Source: Massalongia carnosa
Taxonomy: Eukaryota
Direction: 5' to 3'
DNA: 64,000 bases
NCBI GenBank assembly: GCA_965645245.1
Contig: OZ287067.1
Span: forward strand, 2,728,001-2,792,000
Numbering within the stretch: the first letter of the stretch is position 1; each line of letters starts with the position of its first letter. Shown piece by piece: positions 1 through 40,708 of this stretch. The position numbers and the translations under genes were made by a program. Below the pieces are notes generated by a model. The model was not told the origin of the DNA. It saw only the letters and a list, made by a program, of their open reading frames with translations, and ran no database searches.

Positions 1-897
1 GTTTTGAGCAACGGTCTTCCTGCGCTTGCTTGTTTCAATTCCTCATCAATTTTCGTTTGGGCATACCTCAAGCCATCCTCATCGCGGGAGAAGTGGCTCT
101 TGGGAGCCACAACCGTGTGTGACTGTAGGAAAAAGGGCGGAAAAAATCGCTCGTAATCTGGCCGTTCGCTTTTCCGAGGAGTTGCAGTCACGGATCCACT
201 ACTCGGATTGGTTCCATCCTGTATCGATCCCACGGAACTTCGCCGGCTGCTTATAGGACTCTGACCTTCAGTTACTGGTGATCTGCCTAGGCTGCTGCTT
301 GTCTGCTGTGGCTGAATGAAAAAGGAATTTAGGCGCAGTTGGGACTTTACCGCTGTCAGCAAAGCCCCACTGTGGTTCACGCCAACGTACCTTGTCCTTC
401 TTCGTCTTTTCCTCCTCCTTCTGCTTTCTTTCGTCTTCTCTTTGTTTGATATGTGCCTCTTTGATCTTCCGCTTCTCCTCCTTCTCGATATCCCGTAACC
501 GTTTCTCGTCGTCTTTTTTCGTCTTCTCGTCAGCTCTCTGCCGTTCCTTTTCCTCTCTCTCCATTCGCTTCGCCTCTTGCTCGGCAATAGTCAACTTCCG
601 TCTTTTGTTTGTGGCTTTCGTTGTGGCTATTTCTGGCGTTGGCTGCGTAGGTTCATCCCCAGCAGGAGAGCCTTTGCAACTTGGCATAGGGGAACTAAGG
701 CAGGCTAGGTCTGCTAATGGCACCAAAACCTGTGAGGGTGTAAAGTCTAGTGCGGTTATAGCTTCTTGCTGCCCAGGCTGTCGTTTTACGTTTTCTGCAT
801 TGTTCTGCGGACCCTTATCAACATGCTGCATTTGAGCATCGTCGAAAGTGCGCTTAAGCAGATTGGAGGAAGCCATAGGCATTGCAACTGTGGTCAT
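1..897 (-). CDS. RLF2: Chromatin assembly factor 1 large subunit (CAF-1 p150/Cac1), 5' part; runs off the window start
   Basis: K/E/R-rich coiled-coil (KER) region; removing intron 345..390 (GTACGT...GCTGAC...AAG) gives KKDK|SQLRLNSFF, a PIP box directly after the KER domain as in Cac1. Confidence 0.85.
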
Positions 898-990
898 TGA
901 GGCTGATCAGCTTCTTAGAATTATATATCAATTCAAATTGTGGAATTAGAATGAAAATCTAGAAGTTGCCAAGAAGTCTTCAAACAGAAA

Positions 991-1056
991 GCGCGTGCAT
1001 GCAAGTTCAGACGACGCGTTCAAACGGCGAAGGTTTAATTTCGTGTCAATACGCGC
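991..1056. promoter_or_regulatory. MCB-like cell-cycle boxes upstream of RLF2
   Basis: ACGCGT at 1014..1019 plus near matches GCGCGT (991) and ACGCGC (1051), 95-160 bp upstream of a replication-coupled gene. Confidence 0.45.
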
Positions 1057-1133
1057 TAACCGTGCGACCGAGGTAAATCCGATGGACCGCACCCGGAGCT
1101 ACGCTCCAGGTGCGGCTCACCTCCATGACGCTA

Positions 1134-2839
1134 TCATCTCCATGACGCATTTCTCAAACTATTTACATTATATCCATTGATTGACCCTTTCAAAATGAAG
1201 CTATTCAAAATCAAAGGCTGACGTTCATCTATCCAGCTTTCAGCCTTTTTACCCACCAAGCCAAACCGTTTAGCTATCGCTTTTCCATAGAGAAATATTT
1301 TCTTTTGTCTAGCCGTCTCAGCACGCTTTTGACGACCCTCCTCCCTTCCCACCTCTTCTTGGGTACGATGTAGGTGATTTTGCCTCACATCTCGAACGGT
1401 AACGATTCCTCCCTTCTGAACAACGGTGCCAGCAAGCTTTTTCGGGCCCTTTTAGCTAATGCAGCTGTGTGTGTGGCTTGCAAGTCGCGTTGCGTCAATT
1501 CTAGTAAATTAGCGTTTGCAACCGACCCTTTGATAAAACGTCGCATTCTTTCTGGAGTAATTTCTTCATTATCATTCATTCGCTGAATAATGTTTTCCCC
1601 TTCCTTAGCAACGTCTTTGGGCTTTTTGGGGGTATGAGGTAGGATTATTGTCTCCGAAGATGATATTGGTAGTGTGGGTAATGCCGGATTTAAAGCACGA
1701 ATTTTGGTCAAGACTACCTCCGGATTGTAAGGTATCAACCCAGTTTTTTCCCAGGCTGATTTGATAGTAGATGATTTGAATGCCTTTGTACGAAATTGAT
1801 TGAATGCGGCCAGAAAATCCAGACGATTGAATTCAACGTCACCCAACCGAATGGCGTTGTCAACCGCTTCAGCATGATAATGTTTCATTGGCTGAAAAAC
1901 ACCAACGTCCAATGGCTGCGTCAAATGGGTTGAATGGGGGGGTAATCTGAATAAACAGATCTTATTTTCTTTCGAATATTCCCAAAATTCATACGTTAGA
2001 TGAGATCCATATCCATCCAACAAAAGAAGCCTAAACGCTCCTTTTTGAACATTTTTTGAATGAGCATTAAAATGCTTTAACCACTCTAATGCTAGACAAT
2101 CATCCGAATAGCCGCTATCGCTTGTAGTCAACACGATATCATCTTTCAAATCATTCTCTAAGGCCCATTTGTGAAGTATGTTGACCCCTTTCAAAATCAA
2201 AAAGGATGGAACGCTTCCGCCAACTCCATTGATGCATTCGACCGAAGTTATATAGTCTCGATTGTCTGGATCAGCGATCATAATTCGGTTATGTGATGAT
2301 AGTGTCACCACCAAATGGGTTACCCCACAGCCAACTCGAAAGCCTGTCTCATCCATATTCCATATATCATCTGGAGTTATACCAAGAAGGGCGACAGTCG
2401 ATTGAAATGAAGAGAAATAAGTTTGAATATGCGTAACATTGTGAGCGTTTTTCCTTTCGGCTGCTAATGGCTTGCCTTTTTGCATGAAAAATTGGGGATT
2501 TCTTTTCAAGAATCGTCCGGTCCAGCATTTTCCTACGCGGGTGAGAGAAGATGAAGACGAGGAAGGATGTTGCAATTGCAACAAATAATTAGCTGCACCG
2601 CGAATCAATGGCAATCTCATTGATAATTCAATATACTCCTTCAGGGCTAGTTCTTGTGCAGCAGACAGCCTCATATTGACTGCTTTTCGCTTGCTATATC
2701 CATGTAGTCTTCTTTGAAATAGACGAGGTGAAATATCGAATTCTTTGGCACAGGCTGCGGCTGATTTGTATGTGTTCTTTGCAAATGCATCTAAGGCCTT
2801 TGCAATGTTAGCCTCTCGTTTCTTGTACGAATCAGACAT
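1134..2839 (-). CDS. pogo/Fot1 transposase (HTH + DDE_1); 1-nt frameshift near 1438-1442 separates the C-terminal tail
   Basis: Motifs WNMDETGF, LLLLDGYGSH, LPPHSTHLTQPLDVG; adding one A restores RARKKLAGTVVQKGG and the frame runs to a stop at 1134 inside the left TIR. Confidence 0.9.
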
Positions 2840-2890
2840 GATGTGGTTGAATAATAAATGGTTGATGATAGATGATAGAAATTTTTAAAA

Positions 2891-4036
2891 ATGCGTCATG
2901 GAGATGAAAAAAGACGAAACAGAGTCTATCAACACATATTAGTGATAGTAGATCGTTTAACGAAAAGACGATTATACGAACCACTAACCTCTCTCTCTAC
3001 TGATGAACTGATGGATGCGATGTCCAGGAGATTATTCTCCTCTTACGGATTTCCTATATCAACAGTCAACGATCGCGGTAGTCAACTAACCGCTCACTTA
3101 TGGAAAAGAGTTTGCGAAAGATACGGGGTGAGAATCAAATTTTCATCTGCACATCATCCCGAAACAGACGGTCAAACCGAAAACGCCAACAAGGTAATGA
3201 AAAATTATCTCCGAGCATACGTCAATTACACACAAGACAACTGGGTGGATTATCTTTCAGACGCAGAGTTTGCAGCCAACAATCATGTAAATGTAGCAAC
3301 GGGAATGACTCCATTCTTCGCAGACCATGGCTTCCACCCACGCTGTGGCATCGAACCACCAGGCACATACGAAGGAAAAGGAAAAGCAGAGATACTGCAT
3401 GCTGACAAAATCATAGAACGGCAAGAAGCCATGCGAACCCGGCTCCGAGATCAATTAGCCTGGGCTCAGGAAGAACAAACACGACACGCAAACAAAGGCC
3501 GTCAATCTCACCCCGAATACAAAATCGGGGACATGGTTTATGTAAACGCCAAGCACTTTGCTTCAGAAAGACCCAGCAGATCATTAAGCTTCAAGAACAT
3601 AGGACCATGGAAGATAATAAGAATTATCGACAATAAAGCATACGAATTAGAGATCCCGGATCAGTTAAAGAACGTCGGGCTTACCCCCATCTTTCATCCG
3701 TGGAAGCTACATCTCGCACCTTCCAACCCATTCCCAGGACAAGTCTTACCGCCTGGACCGCCCATAGCCATAACCGAAAACGACGAAGAGGAGGCCCACG
3801 AAGAATGGGAAGTCCTCGAAATAATAGACTGCCGCGAAACAAGAAAGTTCGGCGTGCAGTACAAAGCAACCTTCATTGGAAATTGGGATGAATGGAACGC
3901 GAACCCTTACTGGCAACCATGGACAGACTTCAAGAATTCAAAGGACAAAATCCTCCAATACCATCGAGAACATCCACAGAAACCCAAACCACCAGATGAT
4001 CTAACAAAAATAGATTATAATCAAGAATGGAGGTGA
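2891..4036 (+). CDS. Ty3/gypsy (chromovirus) integrase core plus chromodomain, lacking the N-terminal HHCC finger
   Basis: IVDRLTK, VNDRGSQ and HPETDGQTENAN give the D-D-E triad; IGPWKII resembles GPY/F; chromodomain EWEVLEIIDCR...YKATFIG...WQPWTDF. Confidence 0.9.
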   Translation: MRHGDEKRRNRVYQHILVIVDRLTKRRLYEPLTSLSTDELMDAMSRRLFSSYGFPISTVNDRGSQLTAHLWKRVCERYGVRIKFSSAHHPETDGQTENANKVMKNYLRAYVNYTQDNWVDYLSDAEFAANNHVNVATGMTPFFADHGFHPRCGIEPPGTYEGKGKAEILHADKIIERQEAMRTRLRDQLAWAQEEQTRHANKGRQSHPEYKIGDMVYVNAKHFASERPSRSLSFKNIGPWKIIRIIDNKAYELEIPDQLKNVGLTPIFHPWKLHLAPSNPFPGQVLPPGPPIAITENDEEEAHEEWEVLEIIDCRETRKFGVQYKATFIGNWDEWNANPYWQPWTDFKNSKDKILQYHREHPQKPKPPDDLTKIDYNQEWR

Positions 4037-4175
4037 GCCGCACCTGGAGCGTAGCTCCGGGTGCGGTCCATCGGATTTACAGTCCCGTGCCAAAAGTCTG
4101 CGGCCCAACCCGTGATTTTCGTGATTTCGCGTTTTCAACTCATCAACCCCCCATCTTCCACCTCATCATTTCACG

Positions 4176-5261
4176 ATGCTTCATGCTTCTTTGACCCCCA
4201 TAAGTGGTAATCGGCCTCGTAACACTGAATTGACGCCATATCAACATGGCATGATTGTTGGGGCCCAGGCGTTGGGGCACACACCGACCGAGATTGGGAA
4301 GACTCTTAATTTCACTAAACCGATCGTGCAGAGCACCATTCAGAAGCACTCAATTCGCAACGACGGCGTGTCTAAATCACGTTCTGGACGGCCTGAAGTG
4401 CTGTCAGAACGCGATCGACGTTATATCATCAAGCATGCACGAATCAATCCACGAATCACTTATGCACAAATCAAACTAGAAGTGGGGCTTGGCTGCAGTC
4501 GTACGACCATTTATCGGGCACTCAAACTGTATGGTTTAACCAACTGGGTGGCTAAAAAACGACCTTTATTGACGCCTGAGGTGGCCAAGAAACGATTGGA
4601 TAGGTGCTTGCTGCGGCGTGAGTGGACTTTTGAGCAGTGGTCAAGAGTTATATGGTCAGATGAGTGCTCGGTGGAAAAGGGGTCAGGAAAACAGCGTCAG
4701 TGGGTGTTCAGATTGCCGAAAGAAAAATGGAATAAAGAGATGATACAACCTGTCCCCAAAGGCAAAGGAGTCAGTGTCATGGTTTGGGCAGCTTTTTGGG
4801 GAGATGACAGGTCAGATCTTTACAAATTGGCTCGTGATTTTGCTGCGAAGAAGATGGGGTACTCGGCGAACTCATATCTGGAATTATTGAACGCTAATCT
4901 GCTTGGAAGTTGGCAACCGGGCCTTATTTTCATGCAGGATAACGCACCTATACATAAGGCTAAAAAGGGGATGGAATGGTTCAATGAGAACGGCATAGAG
5001 GTCATCGATTGGCCCCCCTATTCACCTGATTTAAATCCCATCGAGCACGTTTGGTATGTGCTCAAAAAGCTCGTCTATCAAGTCAACCCGAACATAGATT
5101 TGGTGATTGGCAGTGATGAAACTGTTCGTGAGGTACTTTGGAAAGCGTTAGAAGAAGCCTGGACGTTGATAGATGTGAAAATGATGAGGAGGTTAATAGA
5201 GAGCATGAATAGGAGGATAAAAGCGTGTATAGCGTCGGAAGGATGGTATACTAAATATTAA
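4176..5261 (+). CDS. Tc1 transposase, uninterrupted ORF
   Basis: N-terminal HTHs with RSGRP; catalytic motifs WSDE, MQDNAPIH, WPPYSPDLNPIEHVW. Confidence 0.95.
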   Translation: MLHASLTPISGNRPRNTELTPYQHGMIVGAQALGHTPTEIGKTLNFTKPIVQSTIQKHSIRNDGVSKSRSGRPEVLSERDRRYIIKHARINPRITYAQIKLEVGLGCSRTTIYRALKLYGLTNWVAKKRPLLTPEVAKKRLDRCLLRREWTFEQWSRVIWSDECSVEKGSGKQRQWVFRLPKEKWNKEMIQPVPKGKGVSVMVWAAFWGDDRSDLYKLARDFAAKKMGYSANSYLELLNANLLGSWQPGLIFMQDNAPIHKAKKGMEWFNENGIEVIDWPPYSPDLNPIEHVWYVLKKLVYQVNPNIDLVIGSDETVREVLWKALEEAWTLIDVKMMRRLIESMNRRIKACIASEGWYTKY

Positions 5262-5442
5262 AAATCAATTTTTGGGGGAATTCTTGTTTAGTAATCATTA
5301 TGTAAAGTTTCAAGACATTTCAGCAATCGTGACGTGGTTGATTGTTGATTGAATAGATGAGATGGTTCTATGTCACGTGAGGCCCCTGAGTCAAAGTAAA
5401 TTAAGAATCACCCTCTGAAAATTCTTTCCTCATCCACTTCTT

Positions 5443-5690
5443 CTCACTCGGCCTCATCCATCTCACTGACTCGTCGTCGACCCCACGTTGTCTCGGTGCC
5501 CCTACCTCGCTGTCAGTGCTTGCTGCTTTTCCTCACTCGGCCTCATCCATCTCACTGACTCGTCGTCGACCCCACGTTGTCTCGGTGCCCCTACCTCGCT
5601 GTCAGTGCTTGCTGCTTTTCCCATCTCACTGACTCGTCGTCGACCTCACGTTGTCCTCGGTGCCCCTACCTCGCTGTCGGTGCTTTTTCC
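5443..5690 (+). repeat. About 2.8 copies of an 89-bp tandem repeat in the retrotransposon leader
   Basis: Identical units start at 5443 and 5532; a 5'-shortened, slightly diverged third unit starts at 5621. Confidence 0.95.
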
Positions 5691-5692
5691 CA

Positions 5693-6706
5693 ATGACGAA
5701 CACCCGTTCCCAAAGCACCCCGATGGACGACATAGTCCCCGACTCCCAGGAGATTGTCGGATTGACGCAGGCCCAGTCCAATCAAATCTTCGCCCTACAA
5801 AAGAAGAAAGCCGAGGCAGAAGCGAAGGCGGCCGAGGCTGAGGCCAGAATTGCCGAGTCCAAGGCATTGGTCGCCGAGAAGGAGGTGGAAAAAATGCAGC
5901 TAGAAATCGACTGCATGCGCCGAGAATCTGACGCCCGAATAGCGGCCGTCATTCCTGCTGGCAAGCCGAGTCGTGTCGTCGGCGATGACGACGAGGACCT
6001 AGGTGAGATCCCTCTCGAAGTAAGAAGTATAGCACCCCGTTTCGCGGGCCTACCACAGGACGAGATCATCAAGATCTTTTCAAATAAATTCAAAGCCATC
6101 AACCTCTCCCGCCTCCGACACATGCACGGCATGCAATACGAGTCCTACAAGGATCAGGACCGCATCGGCATCGAAGACGGCGCCTTGAGGTTGAGAAAGG
6201 CATCCGGGACCTACAAAGATTTCGGAAAGACAGTTCATGACGTCTGGACAGAGAGCTTCATCAACTACACCTCGATCATGGTCAGTCTTTTCGGGAAATC
6301 GAGTCAACAGCTTCACGCCACCATGTCGGCATTCCACGGAAAAATCCTCACGCTGGCCAAGGTGTACGGGTGGCAGGAAGCAGTCCTCCCCCTCACCATC
6401 GAAACCCACACTCACATCATCGCGTCTCAGCCATCCGACGCATCCCAATGGAAAATGCCCGACGAATTCCAAGCTCGATTCTGCACCCCCCTCACAGTCC
6501 TACGCCGTCGCCGCTCACGATCCCCGCCGTCCCGGCGACCGACCCCGAGAGGAGACAGGGCCGATAGGGCCGAGAAGGCAGCGGGGGAAATCTGCGACAA
6601 GTACAACAGCGGCACCTGCACCTGGCCGTCGTGCTACCGACAGCACAAATGTAAATCGTGCGGCGCGGCTGGGCATGGCCAGAAGACATGCCCAACGAAG
6701 AAATAG
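5693..6706 (+). CDS. gag-like ORF1 of the YR retrotransposon
   Basis: N-terminal coiled coil; C-terminal CCCH finger followed by the CCHC knuckle CKSCGAAGHGQKTC. Confidence 0.85.
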   Translation: MTNTRSQSTPMDDIVPDSQEIVGLTQAQSNQIFALQKKKAEAEAKAAEAEARIAESKALVAEKEVEKMQLEIDCMRRESDARIAAVIPAGKPSRVVGDDDEDLGEIPLEVRSIAPRFAGLPQDEIIKIFSNKFKAINLSRLRHMHGMQYESYKDQDRIGIEDGALRLRKASGTYKDFGKTVHDVWTESFINYTSIMVSLFGKSSQQLHATMSAFHGKILTLAKVYGWQEAVLPLTIETHTHIIASQPSDASQWKMPDEFQARFCTPLTVLRRRRSRSPPSRRPTPRGDRADRAEKAAGEICDKYNSGTCTWPSCYRQHKCKSCGAAGHGQKTCPTKK

Positions 6707-6751
6707 GGGGTTGGTGCAGGAGGCAGTAGAATAGCTTCAATAGCTGAATTC

Positions 6752-8456
6752 ATGACGTCCCATCCCTGCTTACCTGCACCAATCAGACCAAATACAATCC
6801 CTTCGTTTCAACTCGTAGACGCATCTCGTCAGCGTTTGAAAGACAGCCCATCTCCCCTCGTACCGTCCGCATGGGCAACTCTACTTCAAGAGTATCCGGG
6901 CCCCCTCCGAGTCCATCTGCCCATGATCCTTCGTTTCGGAGTACAAATCGGATACGAAGGCCCCACAGACATCCTTCGGATCGAAAAAAATCTGACATCA
7001 GCGAATGAGGACCCGGAAACGATCGAGAATAAGCTCCAAGAGGACCTCAGGAAGGGCCGAGTCAGACGAATAGCCGCCCCGAGTCAGCCATTTGTGGCCT
7101 CCCCCCTCGGCTTGGTCCCGAAACATGACGGAGGATGGCGACGCATTCATCATCTGTCTCATCCCAATCAAACATCAGTCAACGACAACATTCCAGAAGA
7201 GGCATCCAAATTACAATACGCCAGACTCGACGACATTATTCAATTGATTTCTGTCAGCGGGCAAAGGTGCTGTCATAGTGAAAAGAGACGTCAAAGACGC
7301 CTTTCGAAACGTTCCCGTCGCACCTCATCATCAATGGCTTCTGGGTTTCGGATGGAATGACGAATTCTACACCGAGACATGCCTTTCGTTCGGACTGTCG
7401 ACGGCCCCGTTCATCTTCAATCTTTTTGCGGAAGGCTTTCATTGGATTTTGGAATCCTTTCTGCAATGGAGATTACATCACTATCTAGACGACTTCGTTG
7501 CAATTTTCCCATCCGAGACATCGTCAGAACGATTGCACCAAGAAACAAAAGCCTACAACATTCTCACCGACATTCTTGGCATCCCGAGAAACGACTCAAA
7601 AGACGCCGAGGGAACGACAGCGACAGTCTTCGGACTCGAGGTCGACACCATCAACAGTCTTATTCGTCTGCCAGCGGACAAGCTGGAAAAAGCGAGAATC
7701 ATCACTACAAAGGCACTAAACGAGACGACAATCAGCCTCGGCGACATGCAGTCAATAGCGGGCTTCCTAAGCTTCTGCGCACAGGCAGTCAAATTGGGCC
7801 GAGTCTTCTTACGATTATTCTGGAATTTTATAGCCTCATTTCCCTCGGGCAGTCATCGTCGGGTCAAAAGAAGAATTCCCACATGGGTCAGACAGGATCT
7901 CATCTGGTGGAACAAACTTCTAGTGGACTTCAACGGTATTGTCTTCTTCGAGACGTCAACACGAGACACGATCAAGGTGCATACGGATGCATGCCTCACG
8001 GGTCTCGGAGGCTATTTTCAACAAGACAACGAGCTCGTGAATCAAAAAAACGCATGTAGGGCCCGAGTCCTAGTCCTCAATCAGGAAGGATCACCGAGCA
8101 TAAACGTCCGAGAAGTCGAAGCTATCCTTCTAATCCTTCAGAAATGGGCGCCGACATGGCGACATCGACAGATCCTTGTCTTTACCGACAGCAACACAGC
8201 ATACACAGGATTCACGAATCTAACCCTCAAGGGACCGGCCAACGCGCCTCTACGAGAAATACTGTCCATAGCTGCAAAGTGGGACATCGTACTACGTTGT
8301 CAATGGATCAGTGGCACTTCCAATGGACTAGCAGATGCCCTGTCACGTTTTGATGATGAAAGATTGGCTAACTTTTGCCCTCATTGGCAGAACCCATACA
8401 ATTCGATGAACCTCCCTCCACCTACCTATCCTCCACACCAGGGTCAGCCCTGGTAA
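6752..8456 (+). CDS. Reverse transcriptase / RNase H with a +1 frameshift at 7263-7265
   Basis: LGLVPKHDGGWRRIHHLS, KRDVKDAF, LSFGLSTAP, HYLDDF; RNase H TDAC..E..TDS..NGLADALSR; deleting one A joins the two ORFs (SGQGAVIVKRDVKDAF). Confidence 0.9.
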
Positions 8457-9538
8457 AACGTCTCGTCTGGCACGGACACTCGGCGGACACGAGAAAAGGG
8501 TACGGGACGGCGATCGACTCATACGAGGCATTCTGCGCGACGACGGGACGCACGTCGTGGCCTGCAACAACCGAGTCCCTCGAGGAATGGCTAGCCGGTC
8601 GACTATACGGGGGCGGCACACCCAAGCAGGGAAAGATAAAACCAGAGACGGCAGCGAGCTACCTCGCCGGCCTCAGATCATACCATGTAGACCGAGGATA
8701 CGGCCTCACCCCATTCGAGGGGCCGAGACTTCAATTGATGCTGAAAGGGGGAAAAAGGATCTTTTCTCAGACAAAAAGAAGACGCCTACCCATTTCAAAA
8801 GAATTACTGACAAAAATCACCAGTATTCCCGCTCATTCGGCCGAAGACCTCAACATCGACGCGACATTCAAAGTTGCATGGGCAGGGTTCCTCAGACTCG
8901 GGGAAATCACCTACACTGTCGCTGATCGTAAGAAGACATCTTTTCAGAGATTGAAACCTACACGAGGTGACATCTCATTCGCCGAGAACGATCAATACGC
9001 GACATTACGTCTCAAAAGAAGCAAAACAGACACAAATCACTCAGGAGTTCAGATAGTGCTGGCAGCGACCAATGAGAGCACTTGCCCCGTGACAGCACTA
9101 CGGCGTCTTTTCAGAAATGATCCTCAGCCATCTACATCCCCGCTTTTTCGTCTCGGCACCGCATTCACCAGAGCCTCCGTCATAGCATCCCTGAAAAAGA
9201 GACTGATAGCCGTCGGCATCAACGACTCGGCATACTCGGGACACAGCTTCAGAAAAGGAGCAGCACAACACGCCGCCGACCACGGGATGCTGGATGAGAG
9301 TATTCAGAGACTCGGAAGATGGTCATCAAACGCGTTTCAGCTATACTTTCAGACGTCCCAGGCCTCACTATTCAATTTGAACCTCAGTTTTCAAAAAGGC
9401 ATCCCTCTAGCAGTCCCACGTGCTGTCGTCGCCGAGACGAATCCTACAAACTCCTACCCCTACTCAATTGGGCATTCCATTGGGCGTACAGGTCAACCAG
9501 GGCATCGATCCGGAGCGCCGCCGGGCACCTCCATCTAG
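8375..9538 (+). CDS. Tyrosine recombinase of the YR retrotransposon
   Basis: Catalytic set FLRLGE, KRSKTD, HSFRKG, GRWSSNAFQLY; overlaps the RT ORF. Confidence 0.93.
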   Translation: MPSLAEPIQFDEPPSTYLSSTPGSALVKRLVWHGHSADTRKGYGTAIDSYEAFCATTGRTSWPATTESLEEWLAGRLYGGGTPKQGKIKPETAASYLAGLRSYHVDRGYGLTPFEGPRLQLMLKGGKRIFSQTKRRRLPISKELLTKITSIPAHSAEDLNIDATFKVAWAGFLRLGEITYTVADRKKTSFQRLKPTRGDISFAENDQYATLRLKRSKTDTNHSGVQIVLAATNESTCPVTALRRLFRNDPQPSTSPLFRLGTAFTRASVIASLKKRLIAVGINDSAYSGHSFRKGAAQHAADHGMLDESIQRLGRWSSNAFQLYFQTSQASLFNLNLSFQKGIPLAVPRAVVAETNPTNSYPYSIGHSIGRTGQPGHRSGAPPGTSI

Positions 9539-10179
9539 ATCATCGCCGTCGGGCACTGCCGTCGGGCATCATCTATCGGATCGTTGAGCGTCAGCAGACG
9601 CCTCGGGCCTAGAAGATGAGGTTCTCACCTCAGCACCGACCCCGAGTCACGTGCCTAGGCCTGCCCGGGCTGACCTGTGTCGTTCCCATGCCCAATCAAA
9701 TTCAAGCATTCAAATCAATTCATCCAATTAAAAGCCCCCCCAGCGCAAGCGAAGGTAACGGCACCGATAAGGGTCATAGAATGATTGAAATGTTGGTGGG
9801 GTGCGGGGCCGCAGACTTTTGGCCTAGTACTGTACCTCGGTCGCACGGTTAAGCTAACTTAGGAAGAATGACTGTTCAACGCCTCCTTTCTCTCCCCATT
9901 CGAACTTTCTAAGTACGAATACGGTTGGCATATTCAGGTTTTTAAGTACATTCTCTATTCATGAAAGGCTTTTGATTGCTCATCACTGCCGACGTCCAAA
10001 GAACAGATCTGTAGCAAAGATGTGCTTCAAATCAACATCAAGGATATAACTGTCATCGGAGCTACTCGAGCTATTACATTGATAGACTCAGTCGGAAGTT
10101 CATGGCTGACAAAGCCAGTAGTCATCAGACGCCATAACGCATCCCATCTCGAGTTGACAAGATAAGCTCTGTCCTGAGG

Positions 10180-16118: not shown

Positions 16119-16802
16119 CCCCCCGTCTTCCGTCCCGTACGTGCCCTCGTGCGTTTCGTGCTCGCGGAGCACAGCGTTGCCTCTGCCGACTATCCTGTTC
16201 GCGCCTCTGGTGGTGACCACTACGGTTGAGAGCGATAGTTGTCTGTATAGTGTCATATCGGTGGGATATGTTGGGCTAGCTTTAGGTTATGTCACCGGGG
16301 GGGCGGGGGGGGGGAGGAGGGAAGAAAAGGCGGGAGGAGTGATAGGGGCTCGTGCGCTTGTTGATATCGAGATTAAGATTGAGGTTGACGATAGAGAAAA
16401 AAAAAGTCGTCGAGTGTAAAAGGGGAAGGGGGTGTGGACTGAGTATGCGTGAAAGTGAGAAGTGGTTTCTAGGCATTCTTCTATAATTCTTGAGTTTTAG
16501 ATATCTTTTTCCATCTTTCCCTTCTTTCTTTTCTTCCCTCAGTACCATTTCTATTCACGAACACTCACATCGCACTTTATGTCGCCAGATTTAACTATAG
16601 GGTCGATCTCTCGATCTCTCTCCCTCTATCCCTCTTCTCCCTTCCTTGGTATTTCACACACAACACACTTATCCAAAATCTACTTATTTCACCAAACTGC
16701 CTGTTACCATCATCATCATCAATCCATTCATCTAAATCAAACAATTCAGTCTAGTCCGATTTCCAATCCCCTCTTCTCTATCCCCTATCATCACTCTCAA
16801 GA

Positions 16803-18601
16803 CGTCGCCGGCGCGTTCGATACGGTATCTCATCAACGACTAACGCACAACCTACGGAAAAGAAAAATTCCAAAATGGATCACCGACTGGTTAAACAGCT
16901 TTCTGAGCGATCGAAGCACCACTTTAGCAATAAATCGAAAAGTCACCGGGCGGTTTGCGGTAAGAACGGGTATCCCGCAGGGCTCTCCCCTGTCATCCAT
17001 TCTTTACCTATTTTACAATGCAGATCTATTGGAAATATGTGATCGACCAGGCAAAAACACAAGTGCCATAGGATTCGTAGACGATGCAAACATTTTGGCA
17101 CATGGAAAAAGCACCGAGGAAAACTGCAAAACTCTAGAGGCAATACACAGACAATGTGAGACGTGGGCTTCCCGGCACGGATCCGTATTTGCTCCGACGA
17201 AGTACGAACTCATACACTTGTCCAGAAATCCCAAAAGATTCAACATGACTGCATCTATCAATATTGCTAGCACCGAAATTGAACCAAAAACGGACATCAG
17301 AATATTGGGCCTACAAATCGACACCAAATTGAAATGGGGACCGCACGTTCGCAAAGCGCAAGAGAAAATGGTCAAACAATCCATGGCATTGACAAAAATT
17401 TCCACATCAACCTGGGGTGCCACCTTCGCCAAGGCAAGGCAAGTTTACAGTGCCGTGGTGCGTCCGGCCATGACATATAGGTCAACCGTATGGCACATGC
17501 CCAAAGAAGTCAAAAAGTCAAAAACGTCAACGAGCAAGCTCTCCGTCATGCAAAACAATTGCCTTCGCACCATAGGCGGTGTCTTTAAAGCCACTCCATC
17601 TCAGTACTAGAAGCAGAGACATTCATAGCGCCCATAGACACGCATCTCGACATGCTACAAGCACAGGCAAGGCACCGGCTCCGAGCCGGAGGCCAATTGA
17701 AGATCATCTCCTCCGCATGCAACAAAATAGCTGAAAAACTTCGAGGCAAGGCAGGTCGCAAACGACTTCAAAAGCCCACCCCGGGAGAGCTGAAACACAT
17801 CTGGGCCAAAAGCCTACTGATCGACTCAAAAATAGTTCAACCACCAAAGGCACACCCACCATGGTTCGAAGTCTACCCGGCGTGGCACCGCGAAGCTACC
17901 GTTGCGGCAACGGCCCGACACAAGCAGATGCAAACAATTAAAGCACGACAAATGAAGGTCTGGAACGACTCGTGTTGCGCATATCAAAATCGCGTCATCG
18001 AACCCTCCATAGCACAATCAGTCCCACTGAGCAAAAAACGGCTGAAAATACACACACAGCTAAAAAAGGCAGAAAGCGCTCTAACAACACAAATCCGCAC
18101 TGGCAAAGTCGGGTTAGCTGACTTCCTCTACAAGCGACGGGTGCCCTCCGTCACCTCACCGGCCTGCTCATGTGGCTGGCACAGACAAACTCCAGAACAT
18201 GTAATCATGTTCTGCAGACTTATTGGCAATAGAGAACAGATGTTTCGCGCCGCCGGCACGAGCGACTATCAGCAGCTGACCGAATCATCAAAAACTCTGA
18301 AGATACTAACTGCTTGGCTAATGAAAACAGGCTTATTGAGTCAGTTCTCACTATTATTGTACAATCAACAGTAGTTGAACCTTTCTTTCTTTCTTCTCTT
18401 TTCACAAGGCATTACAGTTCCCACACGTCTTTTGCACTGCGTCTCCCGCCCGACGTCGACCCGTAGTCACATCGGACGGGTATCATGGGATATGGTTTTT
18501 ACACCTGTTAAAGGTTTTCCATGTAACATAACTTAGATAGCTTTGCCCGCATGGGCCGGCCTACGGCCGGTGTCATATCGGAGTATGAATACATCATCAT
18601 C
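16803..18601 (+). mobile_element. 5'-truncated LINE (Tad1-like), RT plus C-terminal Cys/His motif
   Basis: GIPQGSPLS, GFVDDA, CSCG...HVIMFC; (CAT)n tail; 16-bp TSD ATCATCACTCTCAAGA at 16787..16802 and 18602..18617; frameshift near 17597. Confidence 0.95.
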
Positions 18602-36754: not shown

Positions 36755-39700
36755 TTTCACTGGGCAAACGGGACAAACTGGGCAACGGGACTAAGTAAAT
36801 CCGAAACCATTACTTTTTGACCATTCTAGATGATGAAGCCTTCATTACATACATTTTACATACAAAATCAGCTTCAAATATCAGTAAAATATATTCATCA
36901 ATTTGAAACTTTATAATCATGGATGTTGGTAAAAAAACCACCTTCCACAAGACCTCCACCTCCTCATGTTTTCACCCCACCTCCATCTATCAACAACGAT
37001 TACAATCAGCCTTTTTGGCCTGGAAACAGGCCGATGGAGCTCTTTCCATCACGAAGGCAGCTACTCGATATGCTGTTTCAAAGTCAACTCTTCATGCCCG
37101 CATTCAGGGCCGTCAACCACGATTCACATCTGATCAAACTAAACAACTGCTGACCCCTGAGGAGGAAGACGCTTTGAAGAACTGGGTTTTACAACTATAC
37201 CCTTGGGGCTGGCCTGCTAAAATCGCCCAGTTACGTGAAATGGTCGTAGAATTACTGCGAGCAAGGGGGGATGATGATGATGATGATTGATTCTTGTACC
37301 GATCTGACACCGGCCGAAGGCCGGCCCATGCGGGCTATCTACTTATTCTTACAGGGAAAACCTTTTAAAGGGATAAAAACCATGCAGACTGCGCCATTAT
37401 CCCAAACGTGTTCCGTTTCTGGACTGCATTCTTCGCTCGATGTTCTGTGAAACCCTTGACAAAATGAGAGTTATAACTCGTATAACAGTTGCGATGCTAG
37501 TGAAAATTGGGTCAGCAAATTTGCCTTTATTATCCATGTGGTTAGTTTTTTCAACATTTTCGACGAGCTCATGATCGTTCGATAGTCGTTGGTGCCTATT
37601 TGTTTTAGCACTTCGTATCTGCCGTCGATTAGCCTGCAATGTAGAATAATGTGTTTGGCTGTCTGCTTCTGCCATCCGCACGAGCAGGCCGGGGTCATAA
37701 CGCCCGGTACCCGACGATTGAACAGGAAGTTTGCCAAGCCTATTTTTTCGGTGCGGATTTGCGTGGTTAGCGCGCTTTCCGCTTTCATCAGGTTGTTGTG
37801 AATCTTCAGTCTCGTCCTACTGAGAGATCCCAACTGTGCCTCTGTCGGGCGGGGAATGCGGTTCTGGTACGTCTTCCATTTGGAGTCCCAGCGTTCCTTG
37901 ATGCGTTCTGTGGTGGCCTTTGTGTGTTTCTCTATGGTAGCGTGTCGTGGTGCATTTTTCGAGGTGCGCCGGGTCGGGTGTGGACCAGGGCGGGGGCGAT
38001 GGGGGCATTGTGACTGGTGCCTCGTTATTCAACATTTTGCTGGCCCATTCGTATTTCAACTCTCCTGGGGTGAGGTGTTGCGTTCTTTTGCGTCCTGCCT
38101 TACCCCGTAGCTTGTTCGCTATTGTGTTGCAGGCTTTGGAAATCAGTTTCGCCTGCCCTGCGGCCCGTAGACGATACCTTGATTTTATCTGTAGATTGTC
38201 CAGATGCAACTCCATGGGGGCGATGAACGTTTCCGCTTCGAGAAATTCGACGGGTGTTGCCTTGAACGCCCCTGTCACGGTGCGTAAGCATTTGTTCTGC
38301 ATGACGCTGAGTTTGGACGTCGTGGCCTTGTTTTTCTTGATTTCCCTGGGTGTGTGCCACACGGTGCTTCCATAAGTCATTGCCGGGCGAACGACGGCGG
38401 TGTAAACCTGCTGGGCCTTCGCGAAAGAAGCTCCCCAGGTAGATGTCGATATTTTTGTGAGCGCCAGCGACTGCGACGTCATCTTTTCCTGTGTTTTCCG
38501 TATGTGGGCTCCCCATTTCAATTTGGTGTCGATTTGGAGGCCCAGAACTCGTATGTCCGTTTTCGGTTCTATTAGGTTGTTTTCTATTTGAATAGTAGCC
38601 GACATGTCGAATTTCTTTGGATTTCTGGACACATGAATGAGCTCATACTTATCCGGTGCAAATACGGACCCGTGGCGTGCCGCCCATAGTTCGCATTTTC
38701 TGTGAATTCTTTCGAGGGTTCTGCAGTTTTCTTCCGTGCTTTTGCCGTATGCCAACACATTTACGTCGTCTACAAATCCTAGCGCGCTCGTGTTTGTGCC
38801 GGGTCTCTCGCATATCTCTAAAAGGTCCGCATTGTAGAACAGGTAGAGAATAGGGGAAATGGGTGAGCCTTGAGGAATGCCCGTGCGCACCGCGAACTCC
38901 TCGGTTACTCGCCGGTTTATCGTTAGCGTGGTTCTTCTTTCCTTCAGAAAGCTTGCCGTCCAGTCTGTGATCCAATTCGGGATTTTCCTTTTTCGCAGAT
39001 TGTGTATCAGCCTGCGATGAGACACTGTAGCAAGGGGGATCATACTGTGCTGGGAGTCAATTGGCAACAGTATTTTTTACATAGTCATCCCGATTTGCAT
39101 GCTAAATACAGTCGCACACTTGATCAAGACCGATTATTCGCTGAGAATGAAGAGATATTTCAGCATTGGTTTGACCTCTTCCTCTCCATCAAGGAAAAGC
39201 ACGGAATTCTTGATGAAGATATCTATAACATGGACGAAAAGGGGTTCATGATGGGTGGTAGTGTTAAAGTGGTAATTTCTAAGCACGAAAAGCAAGCCTT
39301 TTCAGCACAATTAGGCAATCGAGAATGGGTGTCATCGATCGAGTCCATTTGTACTACCGGCCGAAGTTTACCTCTTTTCGTCATCTTCAAAGGAGTCAAC
39401 AAGCATAAGGCCTCGTACGATGTTCTGGAAGACATTGACACTGAAATAGCTACCAGCGAAAACGGATGGACAGACAATGAACTAGGTCTTGATTCATTGA
39501 AAAAGTGTTTTGAACCTGCTACTGCAAAATATCTACACGGTGAATATCGACTTCTTATAGTAGATGGTCATGCTTCCCATATTTCTACCGAATTCAGCAA
39601 GTTTTGCAACGAAAAGAAAATCATTCTTTTGTGTCTGTCTACCTCCACATACTACCCATATGTTGCAACCTCTGGACGTGAGTGTTTTTGGGCCCTTATC

Positions 39701-40708
39701 ACGGGAGTACAAAAAACAATTGGAGGTCGTCACCCGATTCAACGTCTGTTCAGTGGACAAGGTGGATTTTCTGAAGATCATTCGAAAAGCAAGAAAAGAA
39801 GCAATCAACACAAAAAACGTGCTGACTGCATGGAGAGCAACCGGATTAGTACCATACAATCCGTCATCAGTTCTTCAAAAACTCACTAATAAACAATCAG
39901 TTTTTGCGAAAGACTGATAGCATCACCACCACCACGAATATCACCTCCTCTTCCCATCCTAACACTCCGACAACCCTTCAAAACTCTCACGAAATTGAAA
40001 AGACACCTGCAAATATCGATCAAATAAATCAACTGATTCGTCGAATTCGGAATGATGAAGAATCAGACTCGACCCCCGTCCGAGCGCTAAATATGCCGTC
40101 GCAGACTCTACCTTGCTAGGTATCACCAACAACGAGCTTCTTCAGGCTAATGTACGGCGCCACCATCGGGTCAATCGTAGCGGGGCTCACTATGGAGGAA
40201 AGGCTCGAGTCCTAAGCCTTGAAGACGTTCAACAAAGACAGCAATGGGCCAAAGATGAACAAAAGGTGAAAGGCGACAAAAAGAAGGCCGCTCAGCTAAA
40301 ACGAGCCGAGCAGGACCTTATCAAAACTTTCAGGGAAATGTGTCAATTTGGACCTGATTTAGTAGGACAAACGTCTACTGCATCTCCGACGAAAAGTCCT
40401 CAGAAAGCACCTGATAGTTCACAAAGTAGGCCTATTTCTTCTTTCAAAAGACGATTACTACCTCCTCCCATGCTTCAACCAATGACAGAAGAGGTAGAGG
40501 GGGTGGGGGAGGTGAAGAAGGTTCAAACTAGCAGACGGGGTCGTATTATACGTCAACCACGTAAAATGTGATTAATTTGCATGCAGACAAAATATCAATT
40601 TCATGTCTAATAGATATTGAAGCCGAATTTGTATGTAAAAAGGGTGAGAGGTAGGCTTTAGAAATTAAGCGAAATTTAGTTAGTCCCGTGTCCCGTTACC
40701 CAGTGAAA
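36755..40708 (+). mobile_element. pogo/Fot1 DNA transposon, degenerate and split by a LINE
   Basis: Imperfect TIRs TTTCACTGGG..AACGGGAC..CGGGACTAA.TAAAT; TA at 36753-54 and 40709-10; transposase pieces 36919..37272 and 39041..40571 (YNMDEKGF, LIVDGHASH, LQPLDV). Confidence 0.9.
37273..39028 (-). mobile_element. 5'-truncated LINE (Tad1-like), relative of the 16803..18601 element
   Basis: GIPQGSPIS, GFVDDV, CSCG..HIILHC; (ATC)n tail; TSD AGCAAGGGGG(G)AT at 37260..37272 and 39029..39040; removal restores transposase LLRARGDHTVLGVNW. Confidence 0.95.

Follow-up and report, generated by a model that had tools for sequence, protein, structure and literature searches.

A pogo/Fot1-like DNA transposon in the 64-kb stretch of fungal DNA analysed here (the window) carries, inside one of its terminal inverted repeats (TIRs), a piece of Ty3/gypsy pol whose reading frame opens and closes in TIR sequence. 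This raises the question of whether the locus is a chimeric element, able to move as a unit and to express a chromatin-targeting or interfering accessory protein, as a first-pass annotation had proposed, or the trace of a single accident. The locus is probably the scar of a single repair event, left in a decaying copy of a pogo/Fot1-like transposon with many copies. The scar is Pack-TIR-like, an ordinary kind of event, and the 381-aa frame looks like an accident, not a working gene.

Structure of the Element and Its Split Right End

The features of the locus, in window coordinates, are:

1074..1075, TA on the left, the target-site duplicate of the pogo/Fot1-like element, with its counterpart at 4078-4079
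1076..1152, left TIR, unbroken over about 77 bp, with two 15-bp direct repeats (1117-1131 and 1134-1148)
1150..1448, minus strand, transposase C-terminus, displaced into another frame (translation P0241 matches the C-terminus of P0121)
1385..2839, minus strand, pogo/Fot1-like transposase ORF, 484 aa, truncated where the T run 1438-1442 shifts the frame
2889..2907, right TIR, inner 19 bp, with ATGs at 2891, 2898 and 2904
2891..4036, plus strand, chimeric ORF, 381 aa, with a TIR ATG as start and a TIR TGA as stop
2908..2910, filler of three bases (AAA) matching neither TIR nor donor; donor contigs differ before 2911
2911..4028, plus strand, captured Ty3/gypsy pol fragment with integrase core, SH3_Tf2-1 and predicted chromodomain-like tail
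4027..4077, right TIR, outer 51 bp, without a mismatch to the left TIR; the 15-bp repeat here lacks its first 5 bp
4078..4079, TA at the right end, common to the pogo element and the adjoining Tc1-like element
4080..5391, plus strand, neighbouring Tc1-like element with a 361-aa transposase ORF (4176-5261; HTH_Tnp_Tc3_2 and DDE_3); right end approximate

The pogo/Fot1-like element occupies 1076-4077 with TA on either side, and its left TIR is intact. The arms of the inverted repeat, 54 nt each (1073-1126 and 4027-4080), are 100% complementary, and TIRs flanked by a TA duplication are as expected of pogo/Fot1 in the Tc1/mariner group. A second inverted-repeat pair lies at 1134-1174 and 2867-2907. 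A 32-mer from the outer TIR has its sole sites in the window at 1095-1126 (minus) and 4027-4058 (plus), with 0.00 chance matches expected at up to three mismatches, and a 19-mer from the inner TIR is found solely at 1134-1152 (minus) and 2889-2907 (plus; 0.01 chance matches expected on the same terms). The reverse complement of the left TIR reads as the inner 19-mer followed by 7 bp and the outer part, so that the right TIR is this same sequence with the 7 bp exchanged for 2908-4026. It is thus in two pieces, 2889-2907 and 4027-4077, between which 1119 bp of Ty3/gypsy pol stand in for 7 bp. The arms and both sets of sites agree with the split right TIR and the perfect outer 51 bp reported in the first-pass annotation. 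The element would measure 1890 bp (about 1.9 kb) without the insert, and the chimera measures 3.0 kb.

The 15-bp direct repeats in the TIR are putative transposase-binding sites. The insertion has cost the outer copy of this repeated motif 5 of its 15 bp in the right TIR, and has left the inner repeat 1.1 kb away from the end. A self-search of the 64-kb window returned neither a second copy of the element nor another integrase homologue.

Domains of the Captured Fragment

The fragment is the 3' end of pol in sense orientation. It begins about 10 residues past the first catalytic Asp and ends 7 nt short of the donor's stop codon. The Pfam rve match on the 381-aa ORF covers only profile positions 24-102 of 102, and two of the three DDE residues, Asp61 and Glu97, are kept; the column of the first Asp in P0001, P0036 and P0003 precedes the window's first homologous residue in the alignment. 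The Asp residues named here as catalytic are the presumed ones for this family. Integrase_H2C2 has no Pfam match in the 381-aa ORF, is found in P0003 and partly in P0001, and the window's homology begins downstream of this HHCC finger. The C-terminal SH3-like (GPY/F) domain is recognised by SH3_Tf2-1 (PF24626; E = 1.2e-9, 38.6 bits, cut-off 30). The first-pass annotation had named the product a DDE-integrase with a chromodomain; its open frame stands, and its complete DDE does not, as the first Asp and the HHCC finger are absent.

The chromodomain fares in between. Pfam Chromo gave no match on the C-terminal 92 aa even at E<=10. The tail aligns, however, with the Chromo-annotated region of P0058, P0063, P0070, P0072, P0088 and P0092, and relatives at 37-41% identity have Pfam Chromo at the aligned position. 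AlphaFold modelled residues 310-370 with pLDDT 81-87; the whole-protein model was poor (mean pLDDT 62.9, pTM 0.30) and domain-level matches alone were used. Foldseek superposed the tail on the solved chromodomains of HP1, CDYL, MPP8 and Rhino, which are H3K9me-binding domains, with target TM-scores of 0.71-0.80, E-values of 0.06-0.17 and an rmsd of about 2 A over 53-58 residues. The tail is thus predicted to be chromodomain-like, and too divergent for the Pfam Chromo model.

Sequence and Pfam searches bear out the earlier statement that no RT, LTR or target-site duplication of the donor is present. This bears on the possibility that a complete chromovirus inserted into the TIR and that two deletions then took away both LTRs along with gag, PR, RT, RNase H and the first part of the integrase. 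Repeat-rich DNA does receive chromovirus insertions, and the window is rich in transposon fragments, but neither an LTR remnant nor a donor duplication is left, and the two independent deletions must each have ended within a few bp of an insertion site at which 7 bp are missing, so that this history is hardly credible.

Donor Copies in Sequencing Runs

Contigs from four contig-only sequencing runs (X1, X2, X3 and X6) were compared with the window. Donor-type contigs continue upstream of 2911 in the native integrase frame (three in X2, two in X3), and others continue past 4028 (two in X1, one in X6) or past 4010 (one in X2). Read in frame from 4028, the donor contigs reach a stop after two codons, which is the native end of pol. 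Some are identical to the fragment, with zero differences over 272 bp in X3 and over 166 bp in X6. The donor appears to be a young, abundant chromovirus (Ty3/gypsy) in the runs examined.

Among proteins, two of the 120 relatives listed (P0001 and P0036) are 93% identical to the fragment, the next best being 73%, and both retain the integrase residues upstream of the fragment, among them the first catalytic Asp. In metagenome_contigs, 63 stretches matched the pattern and nine encode relatives, the best at 64% identity, with tblastn matches that span residues 8-375 of the 381-aa ORF. The donor chromovirus that the first-pass annotation had suggested seeking was accordingly met in the run contigs and in these two proteins, and no close donor was met in metagenome_contigs. 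That collection, with relatives at no more than 64% identity, and genome_contigs, which consists of prokaryotes, are poor ground for a fungal repeat.

Because donor copies overrun both junctions, the locus has foreign sequence between TIRs and a parental copy elsewhere, as in Pack-TIRs. Together with the filler and the microhomology described below, this supports the earlier suggestion that repair placed foreign Ty3/gypsy pol into the TIR.

Junctions and the Chimeric Reading Frame

At the 5' junction the three filler bases separate TIR from donor, and at the 3' junction TIR and donor share a 2-bp microhomology (AT at 4027-4028). Three unexplained bases, 2-bp microhomology and a loss of 7 bp look like filler DNA at a repaired break. 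An assembly artefact that fused reads from one copy each of pogo and gypsy would have to produce the same picture. Both families are highly repeated, no contig bridges 2907/2908 or 4026/4027 among the 32 of 8269 pieces listed for the four runs, and the window letters at four fragment positions are unseen in these runs. Assemblers, however, join at shared repeats, whereas here 2 bp are shared at one junction and none at the other, and the TIR resumes exactly 7 bp on and in the right orientation, like a biological insertion. A misassembly is therefore very improbable.

The 381-aa ORF is opened by the TIR ATG at 2891 and closed by the TIR TGA, as the first-pass annotation had it. Its residues 1-6 come from TIR and filler, codon 7 straddles the boundary between filler and donor, homology to gypsy pol spans residues 8-375, and the TIR supplies the final two codons with the TGA. 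It is head-to-head with the 484-aa transposase ORF, with 51 bp between the two ATGs, in line with the earlier figure of about 50 bp. A start that fell in frame by chance had been allowed for at about 1 in 3. The possible accident is retained and the figure is revised to about 2 in 3 for a sense fragment, since two of the three frames have an ATG (at 2891, 2898 or 2904). A sense-oriented fragment behind a TIR stub with ATGs in two frames would thus have closed a 381-aa frame by chance. Its product would be the remnant of an integrase, catalytically dead, with SH3-like and chromodomain-like domains, and appears to be unused, no sign of use having been seen.

It is also conceivable that the 381-aa protein is kept by selection for binding heterochromatin marks or for interference with the donor chromovirus. 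The frame is open across 381 codons, and the predicted C-terminal fold matches H3K9me-binding chromodomains. Donor copies are, however, up to 100% identical to the fragment, which points to a young capture, and an intact frame is then expected without selection. Among the private differences of the fragment (counted at listed positions, with 185 further variable positions beyond the list), three of six are replacements at residues conserved in relatives, namely Ser to Ala at 136, Trp to Arg at 184 and Pro to Ser at 206. The resulting split of three non-synonymous to three synonymous changes is nominally under the neutral 79% non-synonymous and not significantly below it (P=0.11), and does not exclude some constraint. 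Furthermore, no promoter is evident in a space of just 51 bp to the opposite-strand transposase ATG, the Pfam Chromo model does not recognise the tail, and the TIR-derived N-terminal residues occur in none of 14 aligned relatives and none of three short proteins. A selected accessory gene is thus a very doubtful explanation.

Decay of the Host Copy and the Case for Mobility

The 484-aa ORF is a recognisable transposase, with DDE_1 (PF03184) found by Pfam at E = 5.1e-20 (72.2 bits, cut-off 22). HTH_Tnp_Tc5 (PF03221) matches it weakly, at 16.4 bits and under the cut-off of 22.2; close relatives are annotated with PF03221, and six HTH-region residues of P0121 and P0122 are absent from the window transposase in the alignment. 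Full-length relatives have 565-570 aa (e.g., P0121, 569 aa, 83% identity), against 484 aa in the window, where the ORF stops at 1385 and the C-terminus lies in another frame; the copy therefore lacks the full-length transposase of an autonomous element. Most other copies among the run contigs have one extra T behind 1437. The window's T5 run at 1437 is also found in about a third of the summed X1 depth, and the frameshift may be common among copies or may be a homopolymer artefact. In the pogo part, 9 of the 12 listed private differences from the family majority are non-synonymous, which fits neutral change (P=0.53). With a frameshifted transposase and mostly non-synonymous private changes, the host copy appears to be decaying.

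The family itself presents another picture. In X1 its summed contig depth is about 150-300x that of the flank contig (contig depth being a mean over contigs that share words with other copies, and no copy number), 4234 of 7621 contigs agree to 99% or better, and 255 fit both TIRs. The pogo family thus appears highly repeated and young in X1, and an active transposase is probably available in trans.

A mobile chimera, in the manner of a multicopy Pack-TIR, would have arisen by template switching in replication or gap repair and then have been moved in trans as a 3.0-kb element. Over their outer 51 bp the two TIRs match perfectly, TA stands intact on either side, a young and abundant family should supply transposase, and multicopy Pack-TIRs are documented (3 of 23 in frog; PMC8277862). 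The window's private pogo letters have a depth of about 2000-5000 in X1 against 937 for the flank, which could mean a few copies; this 2-5x excess is also compatible with a single copy, since contigs share words with other copies. At four of the six listed private positions of the fragment, however, the window letter is in no contig of the four runs, and the outer 15-bp TIR repeat lacks 5 bp while the inner one is 1.1 kb from the end. No second junction was found among the protein relatives, or in metagenome_contigs and genome_contigs, where a 26-mer across the junction had no matches; both collections are unlikely to hold this fungus. The outer-TIR 32-mer likewise had no match in genome_contigs, a result of little weight in a prokaryote collection. 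On balance, mobility of the chimera is unlikely.

The dead integrase, the frameshifted transposase and the damaged TIR motif, together with private replacements at conserved residues in both parts and the failure of the searches to find a second junction, speak against the first-pass proposal of a functional chimera that moves as a unit and expresses a chromatin-targeting or interfering protein. In its strongest form, the 3.0-kb chimera would be moved in trans and the dead integrase with its SH3-like and chromodomain-like domains would be expressed from between the divergent ATGs, the protein either tethering to heterochromatin or poisoning the donor intasome. Such an element would be a DNA transposon armed with a piece of a rival retrotransposon, and is far-fetched.

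Proposed Origin of a Probable Repair Scar

A one-off repair scar could have formed in four steps. (i) A pogo copy would have inserted at the TA adjoining the Tc1-like element. (ii) A double-strand break would have occurred inside its right TIR, between the two 15-bp repeated motifs. (iii) End joining or microhomology-guided synthesis would have sealed the break while taking up 1.1 kb of a chromovirus (Ty3/gypsy), whose source may have been free cDNA or a DNA fragment, or a template switch onto a chromosomal copy. (iv) In the process 7 bp of the TIR would have been lost and three bases added at one junction, with 2-bp microhomology at the other.

Processes of this kind are described elsewhere. 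Pol4-dependent end joining in yeast makes 1-3-nt insertions and captures retrotransposon cDNA from all Ty1 regions (PMC11372161), and the capture of linear fragments at breaks needs NHEJ (PMC1976456). In animals, Pack-TIRs with a single copy are attributed to gap filling that does not depend on transposition, the median microhomology being 2 bp (PMC8277862).

Relation to Known Systems

The locus resembles Pack-TIR or Pack-MULE capture in having foreign DNA between TIRs, a parental copy elsewhere and microhomology at a breakpoint, as such captures are described (PMC8277862). Little of the element is deleted, again as in Pack-TIRs, and captures by the TcMariner superfamily make up 115 of 370 cases, the majority of all cases being single-copy (PMC8277862). 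However, Pack-TIRs are defined there by non-transposon filler, whereas the filler here is Ty3/gypsy pol, which places the locus outside that definition; the captured length is 1119 bp against a median of 224 bp; and the breakpoint lies inside the TIR, whereas the breakpoints described for Pack-TIRs lie in the element body (PMC8277862). The bias of Pack-TIRs to nearby donors (PMC8277862) is not seen here, there being no donor in the 60 kb rightward.

Break capture of retrotransposon cDNA or linear fragments offers a second likeness. An internal piece without LTR ends is taken up, with 1-3 added bases and microhomology, and the accounts of these junctions give integrase no role (PMC11372161; PMC1976456; PMC4516963). 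The breaks in those studies were made experimentally in yeast or mouse, at defined positions, whereas here the break and its pathway are read from the scar, which does not tell cDNA from a chromosomal template.

Ginger1 likewise has a gypsy-integrase-like coding sequence between terminal inverted repeats. Its integrase-like protein is described as the transposase, with an HHCC finger, DDE triad and GPY motif, and its termini are TG..CA (PMC6839031). In contrast, the window element has its own pogo DDE_1 transposase, TA flanks, unrelated TIRs and a truncated integrase, and so is not of the Ginger1 kind as described there. The donor is of the kind with a chromovirus integrase and C-terminal chromodomain (Gao et al., 2008, as cited in PMC6839031), although the window holds only the C-terminal two thirds of such an integrase and no retrotransposon is attached. 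With the Fot1/pogo elements described from fungi the locus shares a DDE_1 transposase, TIRs between TA flanks and, once the insert is discounted, a length of about 1.9 kb, and the CENP-B-type HTH is found here in relatives (PMC7386202; PMC7325037); unlike them, the window copy is frameshifted and bears an insert. Among the papers listed in the literature search, none describes a Tc1/mariner transposon with a chromodomain or a pogo element with a gypsy integrase fragment, and absence from print is not claimed for either.

As a repair scar, the locus would be a clean natural case of filler-DNA capture in a fungus, located inside a transposon end rather than its body, with a donor that is abundant in the runs examined and both junctions readable to the base. 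It would add to a picture in which repair fills breaks in repeats from any abundant DNA or cDNA, and in which ORFs arise at no cost. Were the chimera multicopy or expressed, it would show a class II element that had acquired a domain of a class I element, and would matter more.

The Neighbouring Tc1-like Element

The window holds many transposon fragments. For the Tc1-like element that shares the right-hand TA, a matching right TIR was not found in 4000-6000. Joints in the sequencing-run contigs are seen at 5391, near its right end, and run X6 has a Tc1-like copy from elsewhere whose alignment starts at 4078 behind unrelated DNA.

Anatomy of the pogo/Fot1-like element

The window begins with a short host-like ORF, and a nest of transposons comes next. 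The first member is a pogo/Fot1-like element at 1076-4077, with ends formed by 54-nt arms that are 100% complementary (1073-1126 vs 4027-4080) and a computed length of 1890 bp without its insert.

Features of the pogo/Fot1-like element and its flank
268-897, - strand: short host-like ORF with a Pfam match to the CAF1A acidic region, the first feature of the window
1074-1075 and 4078-4079: TA flanks
1385-2839, - strand: transposase ORF of 484 aa, DDE_1 (E=5.1e-20), weak match to a Tc5-type HTH
1117-1131 and 1134-1148: two 15-bp direct repeats in the left TIR (about 77 bp)

The right TIR predicted from the reverse complement of the left TIR consists of an inner 19-mer, 7 bp and an outer part. 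In the window the 19-mer is found at 2889-2907 and the outer part at 4027-4077, and 2908-4026 stands in place of the 7 bp. Each piece occurs only at its two expected places in the 64 kb with up to three mismatches (chance 0.00-0.01), which bears out the split right TIR described in the first-pass annotation. Its account of a chimeric frame set between TIR-supplied codons was likewise accurate: a 381-aa ORF at 2891-4036 takes its ATG from the inner piece and its TGA from the outer piece, and lies head-to-head with the transposase, with 51 bp between the two ATGs. The 381-aa frame calls for no special explanation. With ATGs at 2891, 2898 and 2904, the 19-bp TIR stub offers start codons in two of the three frames, and an in-frame ATG is expected by chance in about 2 in 3 cases given sense orientation, or about 1 in 3 overall. 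At the other end, the native pol stop lies only three codons beyond the TIR-derived TGA that replaces it, and an intact donor family and a young copy explain why the 373 codons derived from the donor are open.

Identity of the insert

Homologues of the inserted fragment are Ty3/gypsy pol fragments (409 proteins at E<=0.001 among 1625 candidates). Those that are named among the matches listed come from ascomycetes (e.g., Pyrenophora, Podosphaera and Erysiphe), and among the best 120 of the 409 two proteins, P0001 and P0036, are 93% identical to the fragment, the next best being 73% identical. P0001, P0036 and a third relative, P0003, extend upstream of the first homologous residue to cover the column of the first catalytic Asp and, beyond it, the HHCC finger. 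The rve match in the window begins at profile position 24 of 102; thus, the fragment starts about ten residues past the first catalytic Asp, with Asp61 and Glu97 retained. The Asp residues are those taken to be catalytic in the integrase family. Judged by its sequence, the fragment cannot be an active integrase. A Ginger-type element, as outlined in PMC6839031, was considered and rejected, given that the integrase part is incomplete and the transposase of the element is a different protein.

The first-pass annotation had read the ORF as a DDE integrase with a chromodomain. Pfam identifies an integrase core, truncated as described, and a Tf2-1-type SH3 domain, but the Chromo model does not match the C-terminal 92 residues even at E<=10. 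In alignments these residues correspond to the tail that carries the Chromo annotation in more distant relatives. The AlphaFold model of the 381-aa protein is poor overall (mean pLDDT 62.9), with a confident region at residues 310-370 (pLDDT 81-87) comprising three strands and a helix. The top Foldseek match is the Ty3 integrase (7q5b, E=5e-7), followed by the chromodomains of HP1, CDYL, MPP8 and Rhino (target TM-scores 0.71-0.80, rmsd ~2 A). Alignment, model and Foldseek matches all point to a divergent chromodomain, for which 'chromodomain-like' is a fair description and methyl-lysine binding putative.

The fragment's closest relative among the matches listed, P0001 (from a 2.26-Mb contig of another assembly), is itself mosaic. 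Its gypsy integrase extends as far as the linker before the chromodomain and passes directly into a pogo-like transposase that is 5'-truncated and belongs to a different family. Joints between gypsy and pogo fragments may be common in such genomes; alternatively, a nested insertion may be spliced over in the gene model.

Donor sequences and junctions

Contigs of four public sequencing runs (X1, X2, X3 and X6) were aligned on window 1-6500. Donor contigs extend before 2911 in frame as native upstream integrase (three in X2, two in X3), and others extend behind 4028 (two in X1, one in X6) or behind 4010 (one in X2). From base 4028 onward, the donor sequence in frame gives two codons and then a stop. 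The fragment is therefore the 3'-terminal 1.1 kb of pol, ending 7 nt before the pol stop. Some donor contigs show 0 differences from it, over 272 bp in X3 and over 166 bp in X6, which makes the capture young on the scale of the family.

At the left junction, 2908-2910 (AAA) matches neither TIR nor donor, and at the right junction 4027-4028 (AT) is common to both. The scar thus combines a 7-bp loss, three added bases, microhomology of 2 bp and a retrotransposon fragment that is internal and lacks LTR ends. Three studies give the same picture of filler capture at breaks: insertions of 1-3 nt result from Pol4-dependent end joining, which also takes up retrotransposon cDNA originating anywhere in Ty1 (PMC11372161); NHEJ is required for linear fragments to be captured (PMC1976456); and single-copy Pack-TIRs are attributed to gap filling independent of transposition, the median microhomology being 2 bp (PMC8277862). 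The scar belongs with both Pack-TIR-like captures and retrotransposon-cDNA capture at breaks. We consider a one-off repair event the likely origin, in which a break within the TIR of a decaying pogo copy would have been repaired once, with part of an abundant chromovirus as filler, and the open frame would have arisen by chance.

Copy number of the chimera

All three families (pogo, gypsy and Tc1-like) are highly repeated in the runs; in X1 the summed depth, which is not copy number, is ~150-670 thousand vs 937 for the flank contig, and 255 X1 contigs fit both TIRs. The window's flank-to-TIR junction occurs in an X1 contig that covers 1-1104 and probably also in an X2 contig that covers 1-1083. 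In X2, a contig links 1152 with 2889 on opposite strands, the alignment expected of an intact right end; thus, intact right ends exist. No contig bridging 2907/2908 or 4026/4027 was found among 32 listed of 8269 pieces, and the junction 26-mer had no match in metagenome contigs or prokaryote-genome contigs. The TIR-derived N-terminus was found in none of the 14 homologues aligned from the fragment search and none of three short proteins. The bolder alternative, a mobile chimera expressing a chromatin reader or integrase poison, finds no positive support here and is very improbable.

Signs of decay in the host copy and the fragment

Full-length relatives of the transposase measure 565-570 aa (e.g., P0121, 569 aa and 83% identical), and the final ~85 residues in the window are encoded in a different frame. 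The frameshift sits in a T run at 1438-1442, where most other copies carry one extra T (108717 of 160588 depth units in X1; all in X2 and X3). This run is a homopolymer, and the frameshift could still be an assembly error. In the pogo part, the window differs from nearly all other copies at 12 listed positions, nine of which change the protein, as expected without constraint (P=0.53). The fragment has six listed private positions, and at three of them a residue that relatives conserve is replaced (Ser to Ala at residue 136, Trp to Arg at 184 and Pro to Ser at 206), a share not significantly below the neutral 79% (P=0.11); both counts are partial, with 185 further variable positions outside them. 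At four of these six positions the window's letter occurs in no contig of any run, a pattern compatible with a single rare copy, a difference between strains or errors in the consensus. Furthermore, the outer 15-bp TIR repeat loses its first 5 bp to the insertion, which leaves the inner repeat 1.1 kb from the end. The right end would be impaired if, as we infer, these repeats bind transposase.

Nine of the 12 listed private pogo differences (window 1242-2655) are transversions, which is unusual for spontaneous mutation and not RIP-like, and may reflect subfamily differences or assembly consensus errors. In addition, an 18-bp stretch at ~2624 (six HTH-region residues, near transposase residue 70) is absent from the window and all X1 contigs and present in X2 and X3 contigs and in the transposase relatives P0121, P0122 and P0123. 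A deletion-bearing pogo subfamily seems to have expanded in the X1 organism.

Neighbouring elements and genes

A Tc1-like element (4080-5391) abuts the pogo element, the TA at 4078-4079 being common to both. It carries an intact 361-aa transposase ORF at 4176-5261 (HTH_Tnp_Tc3_2, DDE_3); a matching right TIR was not found in 4000-6000. A form skipping 4111-4703 (593 bp, with 2 other letters between) appears in one contig each of X1, X2 and X3, at a depth near that of the single-copy flank in X1 and X2, and may be an internally deleted copy common to these samples.

The retroelement at 5392-9540 starts with tandem repeats of 89 bp (5437-5614, and part of a third unit), followed by a gag-like ORF (5651-6706) with a Cys/His knuckle near its end, RT/RNase H (7278-8453) and an ORF at 8375-9538 with no Pfam match. 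It has no similarity to the captured integrase and is therefore not the donor; it may use a different integration enzyme. More reverse-transcriptase fragments and a second DDE_1 (pogo-like) fragment, which has no nucleotide similarity to the element studied, lie at 16579-17607, 37820-39067 (-) and 39002-39886. Interspersed are metabolic genes (acyl-CoA dehydrogenase, ADH, luciferase-like monooxygenase, FMO, GST, HDA2-3 and amino-acid permease).

Pogo cover is almost nil in X6, being confined to a single bin (1303-1519) where the sole X6 contig continues into unrelated DNA. The gypsy and Tc1-like families, by contrast with pogo in X6, reach 95-100% identity across the runs, whose labels name four different organisms or samples and include a lichen metagenome. 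Close relatives, mycobionts in common or horizontal spread may account for this distribution.
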